Assembly: GCA_965224245.1 (NCBI GenBank) | Contig: OZ245046.1 | Coordinates: forward strand, 448,001-512,000 | Reading direction: 5' to 3' | Length of the DNA stretch: 64,000 bases | Source of the DNA: Candidatus Eiseniibacteriota bacterium | GTDB taxonomy: Bacteria > Eisenbacteria > RBG-16-71-46 > CAZAMP01 | In this document: piece after piece, positions 68 through 13,200 of the stretch | How positions within the stretch are numbered: position 1 is the stretch's first letter | How the letters are laid out: the number at the start of each line of letters is the position of its first letter | Translations under genes and position numbers: made by a program | Notes under the pieces: model-generated | The model's database searches: none | Told to the model about the DNA's origin: nothing | Seen by the model: the letters and a program-made list of their open reading frames with translations, nothing else

Positions 68-1339
68 TCACTTCTGATGGCACTGGATGCACAGGTCCAT
101 CGCGGGATCCTTCGGCAGGTACTTCTCGAAGTCGGCGCCGTGGAGCTGGTGGCAGCTCAGGCAGGTGACCGGCGATCCGTTGCGCGGGTCGATCACGTCG
201 GGGCCCACGGGATGAGACGTTCGATGCGCACCTTCGTGGCATCGCGCACACAGGTCCACGTCGAGCGTGCGCAGATACCTCGGATTCGCGGCTCCGTGCG
301 GCGAGTGACACTCGCTGCACGCGACACCCGGATGCGTCATCATGTCGCTCGCCTTCCCGGAGGTGGTGGCGGTCGTCGCGGCATCACCGGCGCGAGGGGC
401 GTCGAAGTGACACTTCGTGCAGAGGGTGCTCTGGCTCGCGGCCAGGAGATCGCTCACGGCTGACGTGTGCGGGTTGTGACAGTTCTGGCACGATCGCTCG
501 AGGTCGAGATGACCGTGGAACGGCTCGTCGAGCGACGCCCGGATGCCCGTATGACACGTTGTGCAGAGCTCGGTGATGTCGGAGGTGACGGCGAAGGTGT
601 CGTCGTCACGAGCCGGGCCATGGCATCCCGCGCAGTTGCCTGCCGCGAAGGGCTCGTGCTGATTCGGCCGGAGAAGACCGGATTCCGACGAGGCGTGGGG
701 ATCGTGGCAGGCGGCGCAGTTCGCGCTCGCGAGGTTGCGCCCGTCGTGAGCCACCACGAAGCCGTCGTCGGCGTCGTGACAGTCGAGGCAGACCGCGGAC
801 ACCCGATCCCGAAGCAGGCTCGGCTCGCCGCTCCCGTGGGGTGCGTGGCATCCGGTGCAATCCCCGTCGTCGACCGGCGGGTGCACGACCGCCGATGCGA
901 GCCAGGCCCCGACCTGCGTGTGACAGTCGGCGCAGAGCGTGGGAGGGGCCTCGCGCAAGAGCGCCGCCCGGTCGGCCGCGTGGGGCTCGTGGCACGCCGT
1001 GCACTGACCGTGGGACGCCGGGGCGTGCACCGATTTCCGAGACAGCGACTCCGCCACGTCGTCGTGACAGCCCGTGCACAGCTCCGCCTGGTTCCTCGCG
1101 AGAAGCGCCGCGTGCCGCGAGGCGTGTGGGTTGTGACAGCCCGAGCACGTGCCGTCTCCGAACGGCGCGTGGACGTGAACTCCGTTCCGCGCCTGGTCGA
1201 TCGAGGAGTGACACTCGAGGCAGACCGTGGGCTCGTTCACGGGGGCCAGGCCCGACTGGGCCGCGGCGCTCGGCTCTGCGCCGGCGACCACGAGCACGCC
1301 GATCCCGACCAGTCGGATCCATCCGCGACGAAACCTCAT
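68..1339 (-). CDS. 16-heme c-type cytochrome (paired-CXXCH repeat family), Sec signal; probable GSU2494-like member of the omcS-companion cluster
   Basis: 16 CXXCH motifs counted. ATG at 1339 overlaps the upstream TGA (ATGA) and follows GGAGG. Hydrophobic signal ends AAA-Q. Confidence 0.92.
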   Translation of the reverse strand: MRFRRGWIRLVGIGVLVVAGAEPSAAAQSGLAPVNEPTVCLECHSSIDQARNGVHVHAPFGDGTCSGCHNPHASRHAALLARNQAELCTGCHDDVAESLSRKSVHAPASHGQCTACHEPHAADRAALLREAPPTLCADCHTQVGAWLASAVVHPPVDDGDCTGCHAPHGSGEPSLLRDRVSAVCLDCHDADDGFVVAHDGRNLASANCAACHDPHASSESGLLRPNQHEPFAAGNCAGCHGPARDDDTFAVTSDITELCTTCHTGIRASLDEPFHGHLDLERSCQNCHNPHTSAVSDLLAASQSTLCTKCHFDAPRAGDAATTATTSGKASDMMTHPGVACSECHSPHGAANPRYLRTLDVDLCARCHEGAHRTSHPVGPDVIDPRNGSPVTCLSCHQLHGADFEKYLPKDPAMDLCIQCHQK

Positions 1340-3354
1340 CGGGAGCCTCCCTCTGCCCCCGTCGGGCGATGGCACGACTCGCAGGATCCGCTCTCGAACG
1401 GCTCGTGCGTGAGGGTCTGGAACAGGCTCTCCGACGCGGACGCGTGCGGATCGTGGCACGCGCGGCAATCCAGTACCGATCCCGGCTGACCCATGTGAGC
1501 GGCCCGGAACCCGTCGTCGTCGCCGTCGTGACAGTCCAGGCATTGATCGGGAATGGCCTCGACCAGAAGCGAGGGCTCGGGGCTCCGGTGCGGCTGGTGG
1601 CAGGCGAGGCAGTCGCCGTCCTCCGCCGGGGCGTGTCGATGGGCCGCGTCCATGTGAGCCTCGAGATCCCCGTGACAGTTGAAGCACAGGCGCCGGGGCT
1701 CGTCCAGGAGGAGCGATGCGATGCGGCTCGTGTGCGGCTGATGGCAATCGGTGCAGGCGCCGTCGCCGAACGGGGCATGGGTCGTGCCGCCCGTGCCGGA
1801 GTCGGCGGCGTCGAGATCGTCGTGGCAGCCTCCGCACAGCTCGCGCTGGGTGCTGGCCAGAAGCCCGTCGTGTCGGGAGGCGTGAGGTTCGTGACACGAG
1901 TCACATTCGGAGTCTCCGAATGGAACGTGCACCTCGGTGACGGTCTCGTCCTCGACCAGCGACGCATGACACGTCATGCAGATCTCGTTGCGGTCCTCTC
2001 GCAGGAGCGAGGCGCGCTCGCCGGCATGGGGCGAGTGGCACGCCGTGCACCGGCCGATCTTGACCGGGACGTGCGTGACCTTGTCGGCGAGCCAGTCGTC
2101 GGCATCGTCGTGACACACCGCGCAGAGCTCGTAGCCGTTCGTGCGCGTCAGCTTCGGGTGGTCCGATCCGTGCGGCGTATGGCAGTCGAGACAGTCTCCG
2201 GCCTCGAACGGCGGATGCACCAGGGAGGCCTCGGTCTCGTGGCGCTGGTCGTCGTGACAGCCGAGGCACAACTCGCCCACGTCGCCGGCGATCAGCTTTC
2301 GTGACGCCTGGCCGTGCGCGTCGTGGCAGGCCAGGCAGTCCTCGCGGGCCGGGGGATGTCGGGAGGACCTGTCCAGCTCGGCGGGGAGATCGTCGTGACA
2401 GTCCACGCAGAGATCGCGCGCGGGTGCCCGTAGTAGCGCGAGCCGGCTCGAGCCGTGGGGTGAGTGGCAATCGAGGCACATCCCGTCGGCCACCGGATCG
2501 TGGGTGCCCGGGGGCGCAACGTCGGTCTCGTCGTGGCACTCGAGGCAGATGGCATTGGGTTCGCCCTCCGCCAGTGCGAACGGCTCGGCCCCGTCGGGAG
2601 CGCCATGGCACATCTCGCAGTCTCCGCTCGACACCGGATCGTGAATCGATCGCGTGAAGAGCTCGGGAGTCGGCGACGAGTGGGGCGCGTGGCAGATCGC
2701 GCAGTCCCGATCCGCAACGGGATAGCCGGCGTGAGCGTCCACGAACGACGAGGAGGACAGCTCGTGGCAGCTCGCGCAGAGTGCGTCCTGCTCGCTGACG
2801 AGAAGACCCGGGTGCTGGCCGCTGTGAACCTCGTGACACGAGAAGCAGCCGTTCTCCAGCGGGGCATGGCGATGCGCCGCCGAGAACGGCTCGCGCTCGT
2901 GACACCCGAAGCACAGCTGCTCGACGTCGGCGACGAGGAGCCCCTCCTGATCGCTCGCGTGTGGATCGTGGCAGGCGCCACAGTCGCCGTCGGCCACCGG
3001 TGCGTGGACGACCGGTGCGTCGAGGTCGACCGATTCCGCGTGGCAACGCGCGCACAGGGCGGCGCCGTCGTCGAGAAGACGGAGCGCCCCCACGAGCCCG
3101 TGCGGCTTGTGACAGGCCTTGCACTCGTTGTCCGCGACGGGTCGGTGGCGATGCCGGCCCTCGAACTCCTTCGGGTCGTGGCACTTCTGGCAGGAGCCGG
3201 AGGACGAGAAGCGGCGTCCCTTCTCGATCTGGGCCGACGCGCCGAGCGGCGTCGCGAGCAGCACGGCGAGCGCGAGCAGCCCGCCGGTCGTCGCACGTGC
3301 GAGCCACTCGACCGATCGCGTCCGGTGCGTCTGTCGCTTCTCGAGTTCGATCAT
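1336..3354 (-). CDS. 26-heme c-type cytochrome (paired-CXXCH repeat family), Sec signal; probable GSU2495-like
   Basis: 26 CXXCH motifs counted, arranged as repeated HxP..CxxCHxPH..LL..LCxxCH modules. Signal peptide ends ASA-Q. Confidence 0.93.
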   Translation of the reverse strand: MIELEKRQTHRTRSVEWLARATTGGLLALAVLLATPLGASAQIEKGRRFSSSGSCQKCHDPKEFEGRHRHRPVADNECKACHKPHGLVGALRLLDDGAALCARCHAESVDLDAPVVHAPVADGDCGACHDPHASDQEGLLVADVEQLCFGCHEREPFSAAHRHAPLENGCFSCHEVHSGQHPGLLVSEQDALCASCHELSSSSFVDAHAGYPVADRDCAICHAPHSSPTPELFTRSIHDPVSSGDCEMCHGAPDGAEPFALAEGEPNAICLECHDETDVAPPGTHDPVADGMCLDCHSPHGSSRLALLRAPARDLCVDCHDDLPAELDRSSRHPPAREDCLACHDAHGQASRKLIAGDVGELCLGCHDDQRHETEASLVHPPFEAGDCLDCHTPHGSDHPKLTRTNGYELCAVCHDDADDWLADKVTHVPVKIGRCTACHSPHAGERASLLREDRNEICMTCHASLVEDETVTEVHVPFGDSECDSCHEPHASRHDGLLASTQRELCGGCHDDLDAADSGTGGTTHAPFGDGACTDCHQPHTSRIASLLLDEPRRLCFNCHGDLEAHMDAAHRHAPAEDGDCLACHQPHRSPEPSLLVEAIPDQCLDCHDGDDDGFRAAHMGQPGSVLDCRACHDPHASASESLFQTLTHEPFESGSCESCHRPTGAEGGSR

Positions 3355-3370: not shown

Positions 3371-5068
3371 TCACGATTTGTCGCCGAGATAGGCCGTGAT
3401 CGCCGCCTCGTCGATCACGATCTCCGAGCGCTCACGCAGGAGGTCGAGGTGCCGGTCGAGCGCTTCGTTGAACTTCCGCCGGAACATGACCTGCCGGATC
3501 GGCATCTCGACGTCGTCCAGAGCCTTCACCCGCCCCGGTCGCTTGCCGAGCACCTTGAACACGAGCCATCCGTGATCCACGTCCAGCGCATCGCTGGTCC
3601 CACCGACGGGGAGTCGCGCGATCTCGTCCCGGATCGCGTCGGAGAAGAGGGACTCGGACACCCACCTGGGCTCGGACTGCAGCCCCTCGGTCTCCGAGCT
3701 CACGTACTGGCGCTCGACGTACGAGAAGTCGGCGCCGTCTCGCAGACGCGCCGCGATCTCGCGGGCCTCCTCCTCGAAGTCGGTCGTGATCGTAGCCAGT
3801 TGGACCTCGTCGCCCTCGCGAAAGTCGTCCTGGTGAGACTCGTAATACTCCTGGAACTCCTGCCGGTTGAACACGATCTTCGAGGCCACGGTCTCCTGGA
3901 GGTAGCTCTCGATCAGCGCCTGCTCGAGGTCGCGCTCGTAGAGCTCCACGATCTCGGGCACGTCCATGAAACCCGCCTCCTCGGCGGCCCGCGCGAGGAC
4001 GAGGTCCTCGGTCAGGTCGTCGATCGTGGCCCGGAGGTGTGTCGCGAACGGGATCCGGGAGTCGGCGAGCGCCTGGTGTGCCACCGCCGCCCGGAGCTCG
4101 GTCTCGGTCACGCCCTCACCGTTCTCGAAGCCCAGCGCGACGTCGTCCGATCCGCGTCGGAACTCCCCCAGGAGCACCCGGCCGGAGTCGGCGGCCACGC
4201 GCTCGAGCACGGGGGTCGAGCGCGTCACCGGAAAGCGGGTTCGATGCTCGTCCACGTACGCCGTCCAGCGGGCCTTGCCGCTCTCGGACTCCAGGTACTT
4301 CCGGATGCCCGGTGAGATGCTCTCGTACTCGTCCTCGTCGATGGGGTGCCGTTCGTCCACCCGCACGATGGAGTGGAGCGTGTTGTACGGGAACGGCTCG
4401 GAGATGTCGCCGGTGTCGAGGCCGGCGACCGCGTCCTTGACCACGGTCTCGACGTCGGCCCAGGGCTTCAGCTGGTGCCGGCCGCCGCGATAGCGGAAGC
4501 TGTCCCGCGAGCGCTCGACGGCCAGGCTGTCCCACGAGGCGCCGCGCACGAGCATGTCTCGGAGCTCGCGCGCCTCGGCCTCGGTGTCCACCGAGAGCTG
4601 GCTCAGCTGGATCTTCCAGAAGTACCGCTCGAAGCGCTCGCGGACCGCCGCCTCCGCGACCGGATCGGGAGGCGTCCACGTCGCGCGGACGTAGGCCCGG
4701 ACCGCGTTCCGCTGGCGTCGGTCCTGAACCGGCCCGACCACGCGCTCGTCGAGGTCGAGCTCGGTGGCCAGGGCCTGCTGCACGAGCAGCCGGTCGTTGA
4801 TGGCCTTGGTCAGCAGGCGGCTGAAGTCGAAGTCCCCCTGCCGAGTCATGTCCTCGGTGGCGTGCATCGCCATGATGGCCGAGTCGAGCATGGCGGTCGT
4901 GATCGAATCGCCGTTGACGATGGCGAGCGTGACGGGTTCGGAGGGTGTCACCCCGGGCGCGGCGGCCGGTGCGCCGGACGAGGGCGGGTCGTCGGCCCGA
5001 ACGTTCGAGGCCAGCACGACCAGGATGCCGGCCGCCGCCAGCGCCCCGCGGAGATCAAGGTGTGTCAT
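3371..5068 (-). CDS. Exported SurA/PrsA-like chaperone with two parvulin (PpiC) domains; OscH-like
   Basis: Signal peptide, LAIVNGDSIT N-domain, and two parvulin-like segments (EAEARELRDMLVRGASWDSLAVERS...GDISEP; EAREIAARLRDGADF...GGTSDAL). Confidence 0.85.
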   Translation of the reverse strand: MTHLDLRGALAAAGILVVLASNVRADDPPSSGAPAAAPGVTPSEPVTLAIVNGDSITTAMLDSAIMAMHATEDMTRQGDFDFSRLLTKAINDRLLVQQALATELDLDERVVGPVQDRRQRNAVRAYVRATWTPPDPVAEAAVRERFERYFWKIQLSQLSVDTEAEARELRDMLVRGASWDSLAVERSRDSFRYRGGRHQLKPWADVETVVKDAVAGLDTGDISEPFPYNTLHSIVRVDERHPIDEDEYESISPGIRKYLESESGKARWTAYVDEHRTRFPVTRSTPVLERVAADSGRVLLGEFRRGSDDVALGFENGEGVTETELRAAVAHQALADSRIPFATHLRATIDDLTEDLVLARAAEEAGFMDVPEIVELYERDLEQALIESYLQETVASKIVFNRQEFQEYYESHQDDFREGDEVQLATITTDFEEEAREIAARLRDGADFSYVERQYVSSETEGLQSEPRWVSESLFSDAIRDEIARLPVGGTSDALDVDHGWLVFKVLGKRPGRVKALDDVEMPIRQVMFRRKFNEALDRHLDLLRERSEIVIDEAAITAYLGDKS

Positions 5069-6143
5069 GTCGTGCCCTTTCCACGTGCATCACGATGCCG
5101 CGCACGATCTCGGCGGCCGAGGCCGCGGCCAGTCCACCCAGCGAGTGGCACCGCCCGAGCTGAAGGATTTTGTCGGAGTCACCCCCGTCACGTGAATCGT
5201 GGAAGGCCGAAACGACCTTGCCGGTCTCCGCATCGATCAGCCGGGCGCCGACCTCGAGCTCCGGCACCGACAGGGTCGGCTCACCGCGCGCCGGCTCGCA
5301 GCGCTCGACGGTGCCGGTCACGACGTACGCCAGGGCGAGATCGCCGTGGACGCTGGCCAAACCCGGGTAGTCGACGGCGCCACGGGCGGAATGGCGCCCG
5401 CTCAGGAGGATCTCGGACAGATAGCCGGGCTCGAGGACGGTGAGCCCGGCGCTCACGAGCGCCGAGGTGAGGGGCCCGGCGAACAGGCCGGCCCCGGCCG
5501 GATGCTCGGAGGCGTCGTCGAAGGCGATAACGCCCACGAGGGCGTTCGTCTTCGGGCCGTTCCGCAACTGGGTCCGCAGCGCGTCGCGGAGGCCGTCGAC
5601 CGCGCGTGACACGACGCGTTCGGCCACCGCCTCCACGTCGTCGATGCGTCCCGCGCCGAAGGCTCCGGCGAAGTCCTCGCCGGTGGCCGCCGTGCTGGCC
5701 GCCCAGGCCAGGAGACCCGTCTCCGGATCCAGCACCCGCAGCGAGATGGCCACGTCGGGGTTGGCACCGCCTTCGAAGACGTCGACCGACCCCAGGAGCA
5801 GCCGGGAGACGCCGGTCTCGTCCGCCAGCAGGCGGGCGCCGGTCGGTCCGATCCGGCCGAGGCTCCGGATCCGATGGCGCCTGAGGATCGGCCTGAGCGC
5901 CTCGTCCGACAGGAACGCGATGCCGGTGCGGGTCAGCTCGCGCCGGAGGTCGGCCATCACGACCGTGAGCGCGTCGCTCGTACCCGCATGGTTGGCGAAG
6001 GGGACGATGGCGATCTCCGCCGGCACGGAGACGTCCGGGGGCACGCCGCCGTCGGCAGCGGTCGCCCGTCCGAGCGCCGGGGCAAGGATGGCCAGGAGCG
6101 CGGCCAGCGCGCCCGTTCGCATGTAGGCTCGGAGGTGATCCAT
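5055..6143 (-). CDS. Exported protein with two tandem CsgG/LpoB-like domains (channel-like Osc component); start could be 6122
   Basis: Repeated pattern IAIVPFAN...LLGSVDVF...VAISLRVLDPETG and VGVIAFDD...VTGTVE...VGARLIDAETGKVV. Signal peptide present. Confidence 0.7.
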   Translation of the reverse strand: MDHLRAYMRTGALAALLAILAPALGRATAADGGVPPDVSVPAEIAIVPFANHAGTSDALTVVMADLRRELTRTGIAFLSDEALRPILRRHRIRSLGRIGPTGARLLADETGVSRLLLGSVDVFEGGANPDVAISLRVLDPETGLLAWAASTAATGEDFAGAFGAGRIDDVEAVAERVVSRAVDGLRDALRTQLRNGPKTNALVGVIAFDDASEHPAGAGLFAGPLTSALVSAGLTVLEPGYLSEILLSGRHSARGAVDYPGLASVHGDLALAYVVTGTVERCEPARGEPTLSVPELEVGARLIDAETGKVVSAFHDSRDGGDSDKILQLGRCHSLGGLAAASAAEIVRGIVMHVERARHDTP

Positions 6144-6150
6144 TTCACGC

Positions 6151-6741
6151 TCAGTTCACGAGTGTTCCGACGCACTTCTCGACGCAGCGGCGCGTGACCT
6201 CGCCGATCGACGGAGTTCCGGTGCCGAACAGTGATGACCAGAAGCCCCGCCCGCCTTCGGTGTGGGTCGTGGACCACACGGTCTGGCCGGTATCGGTCTC
6301 GATCATGCGCAGCGAGATCGTCACATAGTTGGACGAGGCGGATCCGGAGCGAACGGTCGCCGACTCGCCGATCGAGCCGACGAACAGGCCCTGGGCGCGC
6401 AGCTCCTTGCCGACCGCCTTGGCCTGCTCCTCGGTGATCTGCGCCCCGTCGAGGACGCCGTTGGCCGACAGGGCACGGGTCACCTCGCCGGGCTCGACCA
6501 CGTCGAACGCCTCGGTGGCCAGGAGCTCGGACACGAGATAGCGTGTCGCCCGGGCACCTGCCCCCTGATCACCCGTGAGGTTCTCGATCGAGACCACCGC
6601 CACCCGCTCCACGTAGTCGAAGTTGAAGCTCGGGTGCACGAACGTCGTCGCTCCCATGCCCGCACATCCAGCCAGGACTCCGGCCAGGACTCCGGCCAGG
6701 ATCGGCCGCGCGAGTCGAGTGTCCGAGGTCTTCCGTCTCAC
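6151..6741 (-). CDS. CsgG/LpoB-like lipoprotein
   Basis: Lipobox LAG-C; RVAVVSIENLT...LFVGSI...ISLRMIETDTGQTVWS. GTG start. Confidence 0.8.
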   Translation of the reverse strand: MRRKTSDTRLARPILAGVLAGVLAGCAGMGATTFVHPSFNFDYVERVAVVSIENLTGDQGAGARATRYLVSELLATEAFDVVEPGEVTRALSANGVLDGAQITEEQAKAVGKELRAQGLFVGSIGESATVRSGSASSNYVTISLRMIETDTGQTVWSTTHTEGGRGFWSSLFGTGTPSIGEVTRRCVEKCVGTLVN

Positions 6742-6756
6742 GGCGTTCTCCCGACG

Positions 6757-8859
6757 CTAGAAGACAATCCGGAACCCCTGCTGGAACGACACGGTCGACG
6801 TGCCGCCGACGGCGGTCTGGTCCAGGTCGACGATGCCGGCATAGAGGCTCCCGCGTGATCCCATTCCGTACGTCGTCTGGAGGCTGTAGCGCTCCGATCG
6901 CGTGCGGCCGTCCGATGTGTTGATCTGAGCCTGTGCGTTCATGCTCACCCGGGGGCTCAGGCTCCAGGCCACGAGGACGTCCCGGACGACGTCACGGCGC
7001 GTGTCGTCGGTGACGTTCAGTGACGCCCGGGAGAGTATCGTCCGCGTGAGGCGTAGGTCGAGCCCCACGCGCATCGTCGTCCGCGTGCGGACGAGGTCGT
7101 CGGACGCCCGGGTCGTCCGCTGGCGCAGCACGGAGGCATCGAGATTCAGGTCTCGCCGGAGCGCGGCGCTTCCGCCCACGCGAAACGTCCACGAATCGAG
7201 TCGCCGCGAGCCGGCGTAGTCGTGATCACGCGATCGCGCGACGTCAGCCACCATGTCCAGCCCCGTGACCGGTGTCCCCGACAGCTGGAGGCTCGCGGTG
7301 TTGTTCTCCTCCACCTTCGTGTGGTCGATGAGGCCGTGCCGGCTGCGCAGCGACATCTTCGCCCGCGCGGTCGGCAGCGGATCGACCTCGGCGGTGTAGG
7401 TCGCGGCGTGCGTCGACTGAGCCACGCGGTCGGTCCCCAGCCCGCGAAAGTCCTGCTCCCAGCGCAGCGTGTGCCGGACGATCTCGGACGGCTCGTAGAC
7501 TCCCCAGGTCGTGTAGGCGTAGTCGTCCCGGGACGCGCGTCCCACCGATGGCACGTGCCGGTACGCCGTGTCGAGCGAGAGCGTGACCGCATCGGACGCC
7601 GTGTACCGGAGACGCGCATCGGCCTGGTGGGCGTTCAGCACGTGCTCGACCGGGTCGCCGCTCCCCAGCTCCTCGAACGCCGTCACCTCGGTCACGTAGA
7701 CGGTCTCGACGACGTTGAAGCCGCCGCTGACGACCTTCACATACCGCGTCTCGACCGCGGGGAACACGATCTCGTAGCGGTTCTGGGTCGCGTTGAACAG
7801 GGTGCCGGGGAGCCCGTCCACCAGCCGCCACGAGAGGTTGTCGGCCGAGACGAAGACGCGCCAGCTGACGCCGTCACCCGATGCACGATCGGTGTAGACG
7901 TACACCGCGGCGACCCGCTGCGCGAGCCCGAGATCGACGCCGAGGTTCCGGTCGAGAGCGTCACCGCCGACGTCGATCGGGGGAGAGGTCGGCGCGTCGG
8001 TCATGCCGTCGACGAGCCCGGAGACCGTGTCGAGCGATCCGAGCTCCGGGGACGCGTCCAGGGCGTACACCCCGCGGCCGGCCGACAGCGGCACGAGGAT
8101 GACGTCGCCCGAGATCGTCTCGTCGCGGCGCCGCGTGTGCTGGTGCGTGTAGCTCCAGCTGACCCGCATGCGGTCTCTCGCGACCGGGGCCGGACGTGCG
8201 TCCCAGCGCAGGATGGACTCGAGCCGGCTGGTCCGGGCATCGGTCACCACGTTGTCCGAGCGCCGGTGCTCGAGCTGAGCGGTGATCGACTGTCGGCGGG
8301 ACACGTGATCGATGGCGCCGAGCAGCCGTCGTTCGCGCGTGTCTCGCTCGGAGGCCGCGCGATCGAAGGCCCGGCTGGCGTCGTAGCGGAGCGTCAGGAT
8401 GGGGCGCGTCTCGGCTCGGGTGCGCAGGAAGATCGACCAGTCGTCGTTGGTCACGTTCTGTGCCGCGTCGAGGGCGGTGGCCTGGCGTCGTCGCGCGTTG
8501 GCGTTCAACGTGAATCGGGGATGCGTCCAGATGATCTCGCCGCTCGGCTGGGCGTCCTCCCGCCAGAAGGTCGAGGACTCGACGTCGCGCAGGCCGAAGC
8601 GAAAGTAGGTGATGCCGAGTCGGACCTTCAGACGCGGATCGACCTGGCGGTGCCAGGCGAGCCGATGCTGCTGGCGAACGCTGGAGCGGGACTGGCCGTC
8701 GATGTCGGTCTGGACCGCCGAGACGTCGACGCTGCCGCTGAGGTTGCCCGCCGCGACGACGGGTCCCGCCGCGATCGCGAGAACGAATCCGCCGGCGAGG
8801 GCCACTGATCGCGCCGGCCGTGCCGCGCGCGACCGGGCTCGAGACCGTGGGGTACGCAT
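6757..8859 (-). CDS. Outer-membrane beta-barrel with an inserted discoidin/F5-8-like domain
   Basis: Signal peptide after ATG 8859, alternating amphipathic strands, C-terminal GFRIVF. Central insert LGVDLG...WRVFVSADNLSW...ETRYVKVV...VTEVTAF. Confidence 0.75.
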   Translation of the reverse strand: MRTPRSRARSRAARPARSVALAGGFVLAIAAGPVVAAGNLSGSVDVSAVQTDIDGQSRSSVRQQHRLAWHRQVDPRLKVRLGITYFRFGLRDVESSTFWREDAQPSGEIIWTHPRFTLNANARRRQATALDAAQNVTNDDWSIFLRTRAETRPILTLRYDASRAFDRAASERDTRERRLLGAIDHVSRRQSITAQLEHRRSDNVVTDARTSRLESILRWDARPAPVARDRMRVSWSYTHQHTRRRDETISGDVILVPLSAGRGVYALDASPELGSLDTVSGLVDGMTDAPTSPPIDVGGDALDRNLGVDLGLAQRVAAVYVYTDRASGDGVSWRVFVSADNLSWRLVDGLPGTLFNATQNRYEIVFPAVETRYVKVVSGGFNVVETVYVTEVTAFEELGSGDPVEHVLNAHQADARLRYTASDAVTLSLDTAYRHVPSVGRASRDDYAYTTWGVYEPSEIVRHTLRWEQDFRGLGTDRVAQSTHAATYTAEVDPLPTARAKMSLRSRHGLIDHTKVEENNTASLQLSGTPVTGLDMVADVARSRDHDYAGSRRLDSWTFRVGGSAALRRDLNLDASVLRQRTTRASDDLVRTRTTMRVGLDLRLTRTILSRASLNVTDDTRRDVVRDVLVAWSLSPRVSMNAQAQINTSDGRTRSERYSLQTTYGMGSRGSLYAGIVDLDQTAVGGTSTVSFQQGFRIVF

Positions 8860-8988
8860 GGCGTCACGGGACCGCGATCTCGATGGATGCGGCCGCGACC
8901 GGAACGGAGCGGCGTGTCCGGCTCCGCTCCGCGAACCGGTCCGATGGACCTCGGCTGACGATGCCAGACATGGGCTGCCCCCAGGTGT

Positions 8989-9015
8989 CGCCCGGGTCGA
9001 GAGCCGACCCGGGCG
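8989..9015 (-). other. Perfect 11-bp GC hairpin between the omcS homologue and the barrel gene (no U-tract)
   Basis: CGCCCGGGTCG-agagc-CGACCCGGGCG. Confidence 0.75.
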
Positions 9016-9061
9016 CAACGTGCGTGAAGAAGCCTCAACAAGTCGAGATTGACCCGTCGGA

Positions 9062-10138
9062 TCAGCCCGCGAGGCCGGCGATGCGCGGCGGCGGCGGGGT
9101 GAAGTCGATCAGGGCGTCGCCCTCATCCTTGTTGTGACACTTGTTGCACAGCGAGCGCTGATAGACCGAGTACGGGTTCGGGATCTTGTAGGAGCCCGAC
9201 TCGTGCCCGTCTTCTTCGAGACCGGTCACGTTGAAATCCCAGCGACCCGCGTTGGGCGCCGAGGTTGCATGTGCCCGGTGGCACGTGATGCACGAGACCT
9301 GACTGCCGGCGGACGGCCCTGCGGTCGATCCGACGGCGGCGGTGGCGTCTTCGAACGGGACCGCGGCGAGATACGCCGTGGCCTGAACGCCCCCGAGCTG
9401 GTCGTCGGTGCCGTTGTACAGGTTGTACGTGCTGGCGATGGTCCCACCAACCGGTTCACCCGCGGGGTGAATGAGCTCGGCGCTCTGGTGGTAGTCGCCG
9501 TGGCAGTTCGCGCACCAGCCGCTCATACCGCCCCTGTAGGCCGTATGATTGCTGTTCGACTCGCCGGCCCCGAAGAGGCTGAGCCCATCGGCGTCGGGAG
9601 CCGCCATCGTGAACGTGTACAGCCCGTCCTGGACGGACCCCGGACCGTAGAGCAGCCGGAAGTTCGCGTTGCCGTGAGGATCATGGCAGCTCGAGCATCC
9701 GAGCTCGCTCGACGGGAAGGTCCCGCCGGGCGCCATGCCCAGGACCGGATCGGCCCCGACGCCCTTGGACGGCGCGACCACGCTGTGTCCGGCCGCATGG
9801 CCGAGGATCGGCTCGCTGGCGCCGCCGTGACCGTCGTTGATGTTGTCTTCGAGGAGGAACGTGAAGTTGCCGGCGCCCCGCTCTGTCGCGGGAGCCAGCG
9901 GGTCGTCCACGAAGACCGCACCGAGGCCGTTTGCGTGACAGCCCAGACAGACGTCACTGGGAGTGGCGGCCTTGAGAAGCCAAGCGTGTGGCCCCGCAGG
10001 GTCTACCGGAGCTCCGTCTTCGCTGTTGTGCATCGTGTGGCAGCCGTTGCAGTGAGCCACACCTTCATCGTGGAAGGCGAGCACAGGCGACGCGCACACG
10101 ACGCTCACGCCGAGTGCGACGAGAACAGCCCTGCGCAT
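9062..10138 (-). CDS. omcS: OmcS-family hexaheme cytochrome c (nanowire subunit homologue), 358 aa precursor
   Basis: Six CXXCH. Mature N-terminus FHDEGVAHCNGCHTMHNS matches recalled OmcS FHSGGVAECEGCHTMHNS. Also APGGTFP..LGCSSCHDPHG, GMSGWCANCH, HPAG, AYLAAVPFE, CITCHRAHA, YQRSLCNKCH.KD. RBS GGAGG. Confidence 0.9.
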   Translation of the reverse strand: MRRAVLVALGVSVVCASPVLAFHDEGVAHCNGCHTMHNSEDGAPVDPAGPHAWLLKAATPSDVCLGCHANGLGAVFVDDPLAPATERGAGNFTFLLEDNINDGHGGASEPILGHAAGHSVVAPSKGVGADPVLGMAPGGTFPSSELGCSSCHDPHGNANFRLLYGPGSVQDGLYTFTMAAPDADGLSLFGAGESNSNHTAYRGGMSGWCANCHGDYHQSAELIHPAGEPVGGTIASTYNLYNGTDDQLGGVQATAYLAAVPFEDATAAVGSTAGPSAGSQVSCITCHRAHATSAPNAGRWDFNVTGLEEDGHESGSYKIPNPYSVYQRSLCNKCHNKDEGDALIDFTPPPPRIAGLAG

Positions 10139-10232
10139 CTTTCCACCTCCGCATTGAGATACTGAAGAACGAACGGGCGATCGCGTTCGCGACCGTCCTG
10201 GGATCACCGAGTCTCGATCATTCGCTACCCTC

Positions 10233-11324
10233 CTACCCGTGCGGCTCGGCTGGACCGAGCGGGGTGATGGTCGTCGTGTGGCTTTCCGGGCCACTGTTCT
10301 CCGGGTGAAGATCGGTCCTGACGAAATCGGGGAGACGGCAGATCTCGACCTTGCTTCGGAACACCTGGCCGACGTAGACGCGGCCCCGACCGTCGGCACC
10401 CAGGAGGCTCGGGTAGTAATACCAGCCGGGGCTGATCCCCCGTCCGCCGAACTCACCGCGAAACCGGCCACCGCGGTCGAAGCAGACGACGGTGAACCGG
10501 TTGCGGTCGAGGACGAGCACGAGATCGCCCCCGGTGACGGTCACATCGACCGGGAAGTTGAGCGAGCCGATCTCGGTACCCTTGGAGCCGACGCTGCGCC
10601 GGAACGTGCCGTCGCGCTCGTAGACGAACACGGTGCCGAGGGACGCCGCCGGCAGCCAGACGAGGTCGTCGTGCACCGAGAGCGAGCCGAGGACGGCCTT
10701 GCGGTCGACGACGTCGCCGGTCGCGTCCCGAACCGGGAAGTCGTCCACGAGACGACCGGATGGCTCGTGCTGCGAGATGCGCGGACCGCTCCGGTCGAGG
10801 ACGAAGAGATGCACACCGTCGTGCGCGATGCTCGCGGGCACGATCGGCTCGGCGCCGGGCTCGAGGACGACCTCGTCGATGAACGTCCCATCGAAGTCGA
10901 ACCGGAACACGCGCGGACCCGACTCCGTGGATCCGAGGACAAAAATGTAGCCCTCCACGTCGACGGCCACGTCGAGCGGAGCGGCGAAGCGGTCGCGACC
11001 GTCGAACTCGTACTTGTAGGTGCCGTCCACGTCGAAGATCGTGATCCGGTTGCGACCCGCATCGGCTACGAACACCTCGTCGTGGGTGCGGTCCACGAAG
11101 AGCGCCGACGGACGGACGAAGAGATTCTCGACGCCCGGCGGGTCCAGGCGGTCGATCAGCTCCGCGGGCCGGGACCGGGTATCTGCAAGGGTCGACCCCG
11201 CCGCCGAGCAGACGAGTCCGCCGGCGAGAAGGACGAGGACGGCACTCCGTTCCGGTCGCCGGTGGGAGGCGATCGGAAGCCGGGCCTCGGCGTTGTGAGT
11301 CGATCCGGTGTTAGGCACGGGCAA
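10233..11324 (-). CDS. NHL-repeat beta-propeller protein (OscD/GSU2505-like); start uncertain
   Basis: NHL repeats (FVRPSALFVD..EVFVADAGRNRITIFD; FAAPLDVAVD; LNFPVDVTV; YYPSLL) and an N-terminal hydrophobic segment. Confidence 0.85.
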   Translation of the reverse strand: MPVPNTGSTHNAEARLPIASHRRPERSAVLVLLAGGLVCSAAGSTLADTRSRPAELIDRLDPPGVENLFVRPSALFVDRTHDEVFVADAGRNRITIFDVDGTYKYEFDGRDRFAAPLDVAVDVEGYIFVLGSTESGPRVFRFDFDGTFIDEVVLEPGAEPIVPASIAHDGVHLFVLDRSGPRISQHEPSGRLVDDFPVRDATGDVVDRKAVLGSLSVHDDLVWLPAASLGTVFVYERDGTFRRSVGSKGTEIGSLNFPVDVTVTGGDLVLVLDRNRFTVVCFDRGGRFRGEFGGRGISPGWYYYPSLLGADGRGRVYVGQVFRSKVEICRLPDFVRTDLHPENSGPESHTTTITPLGPAEPHG

Positions 11325-11705
11325 AACCTCGCGAAGACAGCCAGACAGGTTAACGACTGCCGTTCGCTACCGACCATCGTGGTTTCCCCGTATGCGCGTT
11401 CGAAACGGCGCGCTCGGCCCACGGAAGTGAATGGTGTTCGAGGTCCGGTCCAGCGGGCGGAGGGCAGCTGGAGCCGGGGTTGCAGGACAGGCGAACGGTC
11501 CCGCCGGGTCGCCCGAACTTCCGACGGCGTGACGTATCGCGGAACGACACTAAAGTCGCTCGGCCGCGGCGTGCGGGTCGCCGGAGGGGCGAGGATCGAG
11601 GCCGGCGCGGTGGTCTGCCGCCGTCGCCCGGCGCCGGCGTTCCAGGCCGCCTGGATCGCCTGCCCGAGCCGCGGGCCCGATGTCGGACACGAGCGAAATC
11701 GGAGA

Positions 11706-11740
11706 CAAAAAGAGAGGACGCCGGGTCACGGCGTCCTCTC
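11706..11740 (-). terminator. Intrinsic terminator after the 11765-12691 gene
   Basis: 12-bp stem GAGAGGACGCCG/CGGCGTCCTCTC followed by TTTTT on the minus strand. Confidence 0.85.
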
Positions 11741-11764
11741 GTCGTTTCGGTCGGCTGGCCGGCG

Positions 11765-12691
11765 TCAGCGATACAGCGACTTGATCCGGCTCCAGCTTCG
11801 GTCGAGCGTCGGCGTCGACGAGTCGCAGTCGTACGGTCCGCTGAGACCGTTGTTGAACTCGTCGAAGATCTCGGTCAGCGCACTCGTCACGGCTGGCTCG
11901 AGGAACCCCGTGCCGATCGGGGGCACGACGAGGTCGCCGATCAGCGCGTCCGCTTCCGCGAGCGCGTCGAGGACCGAGGCCGCGTTCGCGCCGTTCTCGA
12001 TGTTCAGCCGCGTCGCGATGAGCTGGTGCGCGAGCGACACGAGACCGTTGCCCTCCACCGGCTGGTGCAAGATGTCGTTGAGCTCGGCCAGGTTGTAGAG
12101 GACGTTGCCGAGCATGATGACGTTGGTCGGCCAGTTCTCGAGGTGGTTCTTCCAGTAGCCCTGCGTGAACACGCACTCGTCGTCCGTGCCCACGGCGAGC
12201 GTCGCCTTGTACAAGGTGGGGCCCTTGGCGCTCGGATCCCACGCGCCGCCGCCGTTGGCGAAGATCGTGAAGACGTAGTCCGTGCCGTAGCCGAGCTCTC
12301 GCCAGTCGTTCGCGATCACGCCGGTCTCGTCGGCGATGTCACCCAGCTGAATGGTGATGGACTCACCGGGGGCCAGCAGGAACGTCTCCGGCTCGCCCGG
12401 AAACGCGTTCAGCGTCGGGCTTCCGTAGTAGTGCACGAGGTGCTGACTGATCGACTCCGGAGTCCACAGCTCGCCGTCGGAGAGGAAATCCGCTTCGGTG
12501 GCCCACAAGACGGTGAACCCATTCGGTGCACCGGTGGCTCCGGCGGTCACGAGAAACTCCGCGCGACCCTTGCCCGGCTCCACGAACCGCAACGTCGGGG
12601 TGTCCACCTCGATGGCGGAAGCCGTGCCGGCGAACAACGTGGCAGTCGAGGCAAGTCCGATGCAGAACGCGGCAGTGCGTCGGCGATGCAT
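11765..12691 (-). CDS. Secreted protein of unknown function with a CxxTQGYWKNH domain and C-terminal SWSRIKSLYR motif
   Basis: RBS GGAGG, signal ASA-I, motifs CVFTQGYWKNH and LAHQLIATRLN, terminal PTLDRSWSRIKSLYR. Confidence 0.85.
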   Translation of the reverse strand: MHRRRTAAFCIGLASTATLFAGTASAIEVDTPTLRFVEPGKGRAEFLVTAGATGAPNGFTVLWATEADFLSDGELWTPESISQHLVHYYGSPTLNAFPGEPETFLLAPGESITIQLGDIADETGVIANDWRELGYGTDYVFTIFANGGGAWDPSAKGPTLYKATLAVGTDDECVFTQGYWKNHLENWPTNVIMLGNVLYNLAELNDILHQPVEGNGLVSLAHQLIATRLNIENGANAASVLDALAEADALIGDLVVPPIGTGFLEPAVTSALTEIFDEFNNGLSGPYDCDSSTPTLDRSWSRIKSLYR

Positions 12692-12716
12692 TACTTTCCT
12701 CCGTTGCTATTTCAAC

Positions 12717-12752
12717 TGATCCAGGAACGCAATCATGATCCAGGAACGCAAT
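12717..12752. repeat. Tandem 17-bp direct repeat (period 19) upstream of the secreted-protein gene
   Basis: TGATCCAGGAACGCAAT at 12717-12733 and 12736-12752. TATACT on the minus strand at 12755-12760. Confidence 0.85.
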
Positions 12753-13070
12753 TCAGTATAGACCAGATGAGCCGCGCATGTGTGGATTTTCGTGCAAAGG
12801 CGCGACCGGCTCCGGGGCCCCGGCTGGAACGCATTCGTCAATCGAGATGCTTCCCGGCACGCCCGGGCTTGGTCGCGCTCCGGACACGAACTGCCGAGAC
12901 ATTGCGCCCGGCCTCGCGCGTGTAGGTGACGCTGTCGGACGCCGCGGAGACCAGGACGAGGCCGCGTCCGCCAGTTTGCGCGGTTTCTAGGGATTCAGTG
13001 GCTCGAGATACCCCGGCGATGGCGGCGGCCACGTCGAAGGGGGGCCAATCCGAGGCGGCGGTCCCTTGCG

Positions 13071-13200
13071 GCGAGGCACGAGCTCGTCTGGGACAGACGA
13101 GCGGCCATTGGCCGTGCCGTCCCTCGCGGCGTGTACGTCCTCGCGGTCACGTCCGGGACTGACGGGGTCGGCCGGATGCGAAGGTATCGCGCTCGACTGA
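13071..13200 (+). pseudogene. Isolated remnant of a FlgD-Ig/T9SS-like C-terminal domain
   Basis: Reads ARHELVWDRRAAIGRAVPRGVYVLAVT, resembling the WDGR...GR...GVY motif. No intact upstream gene. Confidence 0.5.

Follow-up and report, generated by a model that had tools for sequence, protein, structure and literature searches.

The window analysed here is a 64,000-nt stretch of contig OZ245046.1 (positions 448,001 to 512,000; assembly GCA_965224245.1) from a Candidatus Eiseniibacteriota bacterium. Its minus strand carries an operon of eight intact genes, the second of which encodes a hexaheme c-type cytochrome of the OmcS family. The other seven encode an NHL-repeat β-propeller, a large outer-membrane β-barrel, a CsgG/LpoB-like lipoprotein, a 362-aa secreted protein, a PpiC-type peptidyl-prolyl isomerase and two multiheme cytochromes with 26 and 16 CXXCH motifs (Table 1). 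Cytochrome filaments are the accepted route of micrometre-range electron transfer, and to our knowledge all structural and experimental work on the OmcS type has used the protein of Geobacter sulfurreducens.

Sequence and fold of the hexaheme cytochrome

The open reading frame (ORF) of the hexaheme started with an ATG at position 10138 and its stop codon ended at 9062, giving 358 codons plus stop. The longest ORF in this frame extended upstream to 10471; the ATG at 10138 yielded a classic signal peptide, MRRAVLVALGVSVVCASPVLA, and the residue following it, F22, corresponded to residue 1 of the 6EF8 chain of OmcS. The mature protein began FHDEGVAHCNGCHTMH, that is, with F1, H2, C9, C12, H13 and H16, and its six CXXCH motifs started at mature positions 9, 43, 127, 188, 262 and 310. 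The mature chain was 337 aa in length compared with 407 aa in 6EF8, a difference of 70 aa.

A phmmer search of all chain sequences in the PDB returned OmcS as the sole match (6ef8_A, also 6nef), with an E-value of 5.8e-40 over three colinear stretches, a similarity that chance does not explain. Query residue 22 paired with residue 1 of 6ef8_A, so that the F1...H16 register was identical in the two proteins. BLASTP against P0315, a database protein named 'c-type cytochrome OmcS [Geobacter]' and near-identical to the 6EF8 chain (E 3.8e-266), gave an alignment that was colinear end to end, with 145 of 441 positions identical (33%, E 6e-54), and the heme motifs paired one-to-one with those of OmcS at 9, 47, 140, 239, 328 and 402. 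The first-pass annotation, which had described a 21-aa signal followed by F1-H2...C9xxC12-H13-T-M-H16 in the register of OmcS, six colinear heme motifs and a mature chain about 70 aa shorter than that of OmcS, was borne out on each of these points by the ORF, the phmmer and BLASTP alignments and the length of the 6EF8 chain.

The AlphaFold2 model of the hexaheme, built from 113 family members, had a mean predicted local distance difference test score (pLDDT) of 90.3 and a predicted template modelling score (pTM) of 0.85. Foldseek placed it on 6ef8_A with an E-value of 3.2e-20 and a query-normalised template modelling score (TMq) of 0.73, the next match being at E 6.6. With VIA-align, model residues 22..338 were superposed on chain residues 1..407 with a Z-score of 30.4 and a root-mean-square deviation of 2.4 Å over 311 of the 337 mature residues. 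The protein encoded in the window is almost certainly a true member of the OmcS family. As both the fold and the sequence could be aligned end to end, the OmcS core is complete in the short protein, and what is missing from it are loops.

Exactly 12 His columns were invariant in the alignment of 113 sequences, and the window protein had all of them. The same 12 columns were invariant in 307 full-length sequences (H16 at 99%), these rows having been picked by a pattern requiring H2 and the first CXXCH, which makes H2 and H13 invariant by construction and leaves H16 and the other columns free to vary. The 12 comprised the six CXXCH His together with mature H2, H16, H97, H134, H203 and H269, and the latter six aligned to OmcS H2, H16, H110, H147, H257 and H335. 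Filman et al. described OmcS with 12 axial His ligands, of which the subunit itself supplies 11 and a neighbour supplies the one on heme 505 (PMC6584659); from this and from their number, we infer that the 12 invariant His are the axial ligands, six proximal and six distal. The first-pass annotation had proposed looking for distal His ligands missing from the alignment, and none was missing. The reading frame was intact, and no Cys or His ligand position (12 of each) was lost.

Ligation by a His of the adjacent subunit is common to OmcS and OmcE filaments, according to Wang et al. (PMC9473688). His16 was retained at 99% in both the 138 compact and the 159 long sequences of the two clades described below, and is thus a family default that is not diagnostic of the window protein; the weight that the first-pass annotation had given to its retention falls away, as 99% of the 307 family members have it. 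We take residue 16 to be the trans ligand of OmcS. The motif [FYLM]H.GGV..C.GCH.MH was present in nearly all full-length family representatives. His16 would be poorly placed for heme 5 of its own chain, given 12 invariant His for six hemes, its distance of three residues from H13, and a heme stacking in OmcS that follows motif order (PMC6584659); by homology, this speaks for ligation in trans. Four full-length six-heme members were without His16 (P0177, P0203, P0204 and P0227), and all except P0227 still started FH in register.

The compact clade and its distribution

Phylogenetic analysis of the 113 sequences (FastTree, midpoint root only, no bootstrap) split the family into two clades, one compact (57 rows) and one long (56 rows), with a local support of 100 for the split. 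The compact clade, with mature lengths of 327–368 aa, included the window protein and a paralogue from the same genome. The long clade, with mature lengths of 337–443 aa, included the named OmcS and proteins of G. uraniireducens, G. luticola and Geotalea daltonii, which Bond and colleagues place in the GSU2501-like 'clade 3A' (PMC12977616). The window protein did not group with the named OmcS (P0315), and is hence not OmcS proper, i.e., the orthologue of GSU2504.

Relatives of the window protein were numerous. In a search of 5.8 billion clustered proteins, 4259 of the 8000 candidates scored had E-values of 1e-5 or lower. The best 120 were 63–77% identical to the window protein and 325–398 aa in length, with named sources among metagenome-assembled genomes (MAGs) of Eisenbacteria, Gemmatimonadota, Acidobacteriota, Zixibacteria and Delongbacteria. 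In a library of representatives at 50% identity, 821 relatives had E-values of 0.001 or lower, 91 of them of 1e-30 or lower. A genome scan using one genome per species confirmed 148 relatives; the analysis continued with the best 80, all of them from MAGs. The phylum labels of these 80 were Acidobacteriota (19), Ignavibacteriota (11), Zixibacteria (9), Krumholzibacteriota (8), Fibrobacterota (4), Pseudomonadota (4), Eisenbacteria (3), Calditrichota (3), Gemmatimonadota (2) and Delongbacteria (1), with 16 unlabelled. Members of the compact clade were 49–77% identical to the window protein and were found under at least 10 phylum labels.

These results bear on the proposal, made in the first-pass annotation, that the protein is a special 'minimal' nanowire subunit. 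A unique, secondarily reduced, single-copy OmcS, in which the retention of His16 would be a telling exception, would account for the 70 missing residues and for the hexaheme gene being the only one in the window; it is nevertheless very improbable. Thousands of relatives were found, the best of them of similar length, and the compact clade made up half of the tree with full local support and contained members shorter than the window protein, down to 327 aa. His16 is the default of the family, and since the tree is unrooted, 'reduced' and 'ancestrally short' look the same on it. Judging from the sequences, the short form is a property of the whole clade, of which the window gene is a typical member.

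The reported single copy held for the window and for the operon, which contain no other hexaheme gene, and failed for the genome (6.94 Mb in 27 contigs), where a second family member, 53% identical, was present at G000:C1:3740080-3741093. This paralogue, also of the compact clade, was encoded by an ORF on the minus strand (L002:1417-2559; also L083:9997-11139) of 380 aa with seven CXXCH motifs, the seventh (CMWCH) lying in a C-terminal extension. No companion genes of the operon were found near it. It lay about 1.8 kb from a hemA-hemCD-hemB-hemL-hemE-like row of genes, namely those for glutamyl-tRNA reductase, a fused HemC-HemD, ALAD, a class-III aminotransferase and URO-D.

The distribution of the family was patchy. 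Only two of 40 genomes of the same class had a homologue at E ≤ 1e-10, both 51–52% identical, and none was found with the hexaheme query in the sole genome of the same family, which is 97% complete; other phyla hold proteins 68–77% identical to the window hexaheme. This pattern of closer relatives in other phyla fits a horizontal spread of the cassette. In a test for a foreign island, G+C content was 0.67–0.72 throughout the window and the operon had no composition anomaly, which implies that any transfer was not recent or that the donor had a similar composition. The same patchiness could be expected of a horizontally acquired copy that is decaying or silent and has no present function. We regard this as more improbable still than a unique minimal form, as the reading frame, the 12 Cys, the 12 His and all eight operon genes were intact and the G+C content matched that of the rest of the window. 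A relative of the same class (G006) had three family matches, one with two in-frame TGA codons and one in three frame-shifted pieces (C22:61114-62211 and C112:63622-64359); these broken copies could reflect decay or assembly errors.

The operon and its conservation

Table 1. Features of the hexaheme operon and its surroundings, in order of transcription (positions are those of the window).
Feature	Position	Strand	Evidence
Intrinsic-terminator-like hairpin, 12-bp stem and T run, ends the upstream 308-aa gene	11712..11740	-	Sequence
NHL-repeat β-propeller, first operon gene, start codon uncertain	10233..11324	-	Pfam NHL, E 1.9e-07
Gene for the OmcS-family hexaheme c-type cytochrome, with stop codon (precursor of 358 aa, mature protein of 337 aa)	9062..10138	-	ORF, translation, homology, fold
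Predicted Sec signal peptide, residues 1-21, ending VLA	10076..10138	-	Sequence and start of PDB alignment; cleavage inferred
Mature N-terminus F1-H2...C9-x-x-C12-H13-T-M-H16 (heme 1 motif and His16)	10028..10075	-	Sequence, PDB register
GC-rich 11-bp hairpin without T tail, in the ~200-nt spacer between hexaheme and barrel genes	8989..9015	-	Spacer fold z-score -2.85
700-aa outer-membrane β-barrel with inserted jelly-roll (position of OscE)	6757..8859	-	AlphaFold2 model, Foldseek
196-aa CsgG/LpoB-like lipoprotein (position of OscF)	6151..6741	-	Pfam LpoB, E 4.6e-07; CsgG, E 5.9e-05; lipobox-like LAGC
362-aa secreted protein, lipoprotein or CsgG-FlgO-like kind (position of OscG)	5055..6143	-	ESM Atlas lead, synteny
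565-aa PpiC-type peptidyl-prolyl isomerase (position of OscH)	3371..5068	-	Pfam Rotamase_2, E 6.1e-23; NCBIfam peptidylprolyl isomerase models
672-aa multiheme cytochrome, 26 CXXCH (position of OscI)	1336..3354	-	Motif count
423-aa multiheme cytochrome, 16 CXXCH (position of OscJ)	68..1339	-	Motif count; Pfam Paired_CXXCH_1

The packing of the operon genes was like that of co-transcribed genes. The strong terminator-like hairpin upstream puts the start of the operon at the NHL gene, and the next gene downstream of the operon is convergent. A scan of positions 8700..13200 for promoters of the sigma-70 type found none. The hairpin in the spacer behind the hexaheme gene is possibly a stabiliser of the mRNA or an attenuator favouring the transcript of the subunit. 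At the far end of the operon, the ATG of the 16-heme cytochrome gene overlapped the stop codon of the 26-heme cytochrome gene (ATGA, 1336..1339), which suggests translational coupling of the two. Upstream of the operon, a 308-aa secreted-looking protein (11765..12691, minus strand) matched no Pfam or NCBIfam family and had no homologue in the 82 other loci searched, which places it outside the conserved cassette.

The 362-aa protein had no match in Pfam or NCBIfam. In the ESM Atlas it was placed with lipoprotein-family and CsgG/FlgO/GNA1162-like clusters at scores of 0.93–0.98, which are to be read as a lead. The alignment for the barrel comprised 26 homologues, four loci (L006, L018, L035 and L046) having been left out as rows with stops or masked bases. 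Its AlphaFold2 model (pLDDT 88.8) was all-beta, with about 28 long strands and a jelly-roll insert at about residues 254–400, and a Pfam match to F5_F8_type_C_2 fell just under the cut-off. The best Foldseek match of the barrel was MtrB (6r2q_B), with an E-value of 1.8e-09 and a TM-score of 0.39–0.41, closely followed by TonB-dependent receptors and pilus ushers.

The operon was well conserved within the compact clade. Downstream sequence of at least 8.5 kb was available for 51 compact-clade loci, and in 43 of them the genes for the barrel, lipoprotein, 362-aa protein, isomerase and 26-heme cytochrome were all present, with order and strand preserved. None of these genes lay downstream in the remaining eight: two had the set inverted nearby, two had parts of it upstream, and four were lone second copies. 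Of the compact-clade loci, 66 had an upstream flank of 1.2 kb or more, and in 41 of these an NHL homologue stood directly upstream on the same strand. The hexaheme was by far the most conserved gene of the operon, at 49–70% identity across the best 80 genome loci. Across the compact loci, identities were 32–63% for the lipoprotein, 32–53% for the 26-heme cytochrome, 26–48% for the NHL protein, 23–48% for the 362-aa protein, 22–42% for the isomerase and 18–37% for the barrel.

For comparison with the long clade, 78 metagenome loci encoding hexahemes related to P0291 of Geotalea daltonii, one being 100% identical to it, were searched with the window proteins. Among the 23 of these loci that were at least 9 kb long, matches were found to the NHL protein in 19, the CsgG-like lipoprotein in 15, the 362-aa protein in 13, the barrel in 11, the 26-heme cytochrome in nine and the isomerase in three. 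The 26-heme cytochrome was 35–38% identical to its long-clade counterparts, with E-values as low as 1e-143, and the three isomerase matches were weak (E 1e-4 to 5e-11). Wherever a long-clade locus had several matching genes, their order was that of the window. These shared genes, in a shared order and beside Geobacter-type hexahemes, imply that the window operon is homologous to the Geobacter-type cluster.

In that cluster, the osc operon, the genes described include omcS, omcT, oscC (GSU2501), oscI (GSU2495) and oscJ (GSU2494), and roles in making OmcS wires have been proposed for OscH (folding), OscE/F/G (secretion) and the 473-residue OscD (morphology) (PMC13194489). Every Geobacter genome with a GSU2501-like gene is described as carrying the eight-gene block GSU2500-2493 downstream of it (PMC12977616). 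Large β-barrels have been reported from the majority of OmcS and OmcE regions, together with the proposal of a porin-like mounting (PMC13712944). Our equating of window genes with OscE/F/G rests on gene order, sizes and the published description, the comparison having been made through metagenome relatives.

The long-clade loci that were read had, between the hexaheme and the barrel, a YncE/lactonase-like propeller lipoprotein of about 465 aa, in the place and of the size of OscD. Of the 78 long loci, 38 had a match to this propeller, as did 15 of the 80 compact loci (e.g., L006:11256-12521 and L011:5975-7420), so that the gene is optional within the compact clade. In the window operon, the NHL propeller upstream of the hexaheme is found in its stead. 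A gene for a 274-aa multiheme cytochrome was also seen upstream in L006.

Possible function and comparison with known systems

The OmcS fold, the full set of ligands and the osc-homologous operon make polymerisation of the hexaheme plausible, and on balance we favour a role for it as subunit of a cytochrome filament of the osc type. The protein would be exported by Sec and receive its hemes in the periplasm, where the isomerase may assist the folding of a chain that is mostly loop. It could then be passed to or through the barrel-lipoprotein channel, or be mounted on it, and polymerise head-to-tail outside the cell, with His16 acting as the sixth ligand of heme 5 of the neighbouring subunit to give a continuous chain of hemes. 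The 26-heme and 16-heme cytochromes would feed electrons into this chain.

Several observations weigh against a filament. About 89 residues of OmcS, counted in runs of at least four, had no counterpart in the hexaheme (27-33, 54-59, 69-76, 151-184, 195-198, 298-301, 356-375 and 379-384), the largest segments being 151-184 and 356-375. The 20 and 6 residues absent near OmcS 356-384 belong to the part of the chain that bears hemes 5 and 6, and a 20-aa tail, which makes up the extra length of the window protein within its clade, runs past the end of OmcS beside heme 6, the distance from the last CXXCH to the C-terminus being 28 residues compared with a compact-clade median of 16. Heme 506 of OmcS is described as lying at the junction between subunits (PMC6584659). 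A thirteenth near-invariant His, mature His177 (codon 9545..9547, in the context S-N-H-T-A-Y), was present in 99% of the 138 compact and 10% of the 159 long sequences, where OmcS has Arg; it might act as a spare or alternative ligand to a heme, and might alter ligation. In the 113-row tree, the window protein fell outside both the OmcS and the OscC-like subclades. The OscD-like propeller had no match in the window, and the genome gave only generic propeller matches (best E 2.3e-6 over 88 residues). Searches of the PDB by sequence and by fold found only OmcS of G. sulfurreducens and no structure from the compact clade, and the sources searched yielded neither a report of a filament nor expression data for any protein of this clade. 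The sequencing records listed were four of DNA, from one study and sample, and none of RNA. Among the hexaheme paralogues of Geobacter, OmcS is reported as the only one known to form a wire (PMC12977616), and OscC, the paralogue linked to the cluster, is given as periplasmic (PMC12977616; PMC13194489). A prediction of two copies (residues 22-358) with four hemes scored 0.00 in both runs, made without controls, and speaks neither for nor against binding.

The MtrB match of the barrel fits a porin-cytochrome conduit equally well. In such a conduit the hexaheme would be a non-polymerising outer or barrel-docked cytochrome, a monomer or small oligomer like MtrC on MtrAB; the 26-heme cytochrome would span the periplasm and insert in the ~28-strand barrel, the hexaheme would cap it at the surface, and His16 would be used in a dimer or ligate a heme of another partner. 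The two very large multiheme cytochromes, apparently co-transcribed with the hexaheme, would suit this arrangement, as would the reported standing of OmcS as the only wire among its paralogues and of OscC as periplasmic. On the other hand, all 12 ligand His of OmcS are kept, with His16 in 99% of the clade, and OmcS needs one axial ligand from its neighbour. The operon is moreover homologous to clusters that are tied in the literature to the assembly of OmcS wires, and MtrB is matched at a low TM-score, about equal to those of TonB-dependent receptors and pilus ushers. We consider a conduit unlikely, yet it keeps an appreciable share of the probability on account of the segments missing near hemes 5 and 6, the C-terminal tail, His177, the lack of OscD, the porin-like barrel and the placement in the tree.

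A broader proposal is put forward tentatively. The compact clade may be a second, distinct type of OmcS-fold nanowire, with a subunit of 327–340 aa that is 49–77% identical to the window protein across at least 10 phylum labels, with His177 and a short C-terminal tail, and may move between phyla as a self-contained seven- to eight-gene cassette able to build wires without OscD. Were this true, the OmcS-type wire commonly present in sediments and soils would be the compact one and not the OmcS of Geobacter, and it would offer wire engineering the smallest scaffold found in nature. The window locus represents a much larger, shorter and more conserved branch of the OmcS family in uncultured Acidobacteriota, Ignavibacteriota, Zixibacteria, Krumholzibacteriota, Gemmatimonadota and others, which travels with putative assembly genes. 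Should the branch make wires, nanowire-based respiration would extend well beyond the Desulfuromonadia, and a smaller subunit and a compact cassette would be available for heterologous production; should it make none, it would reveal which features beyond His16 allow OmcS to polymerise.

OmcS-like cytochromes of the compact clade are already in print, and the window gene is a typical member. The title of one paper reportedly calls the osc machinery 'widespread and ancient'. Beyond Geobacter, too, homologues of OmcS have been described as widespread (PMC10954620), and metagenome surveys routinely call 'OmcS' in communities of Ignavibacteriales and Zixibacteria (PMC8478452). A search of full-text literature, exclusive of supplements and of Shen et al. 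2025, found no paper in which the compact clade, its length, His177 or cassettes without OscD are picked out. Flieder et al. (2021) proposed metal-oxide reduction in general terms for OmcS-like six-heme cytochromes of Candidatus Polarisedimenticola svalbardensis MAG AM4, with no filament claim in the portions of the paper available (PMC8528874). Those cytochromes belong to the same compact clade, and the locus on a contig of that MAG (L010) was 66% identical and had the full colinear gene set, although the organism is of a different phylum.

Compared with OmcS itself (6EF8/6NEF), the window protein has the same six CXXCH motifs in order, the N-terminus FH..GVA.C.GCHTMH, the 12 His positions and the fold. 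It differs in being 33% identical, in its missing loop residues, 20-aa tail and His177, and in belonging to the other major clade. In its operon, the hexaheme gene takes the place of the OscC (GSU2501)-type hexahemes, downstream of an NHL gene and upstream of genes for a barrel, lipoprotein, isomerase and large cytochromes, and, as in the Geobacter 'clade 3A' genomes, it is the only hexaheme gene there. The clade-3A proteins P0291, P0296 and P0274 (mature 402–407 aa), unlike the window protein, group with OmcS in the long clade. With osc-type clusters the window shares the isomerase (OscH), the channel-like proteins (OscE/F/G) and the large cytochromes (OscI/J), and it is without the OscD propeller. 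Like MtrCAB (6R2Q), the operon encodes a large outer-membrane barrel beside multiheme cytochromes; unlike MtrCAB, its barrel has a jelly-roll insert, its hexaheme has the fold of OmcS and not that of MtrC, and lipoproteins and an isomerase are added.

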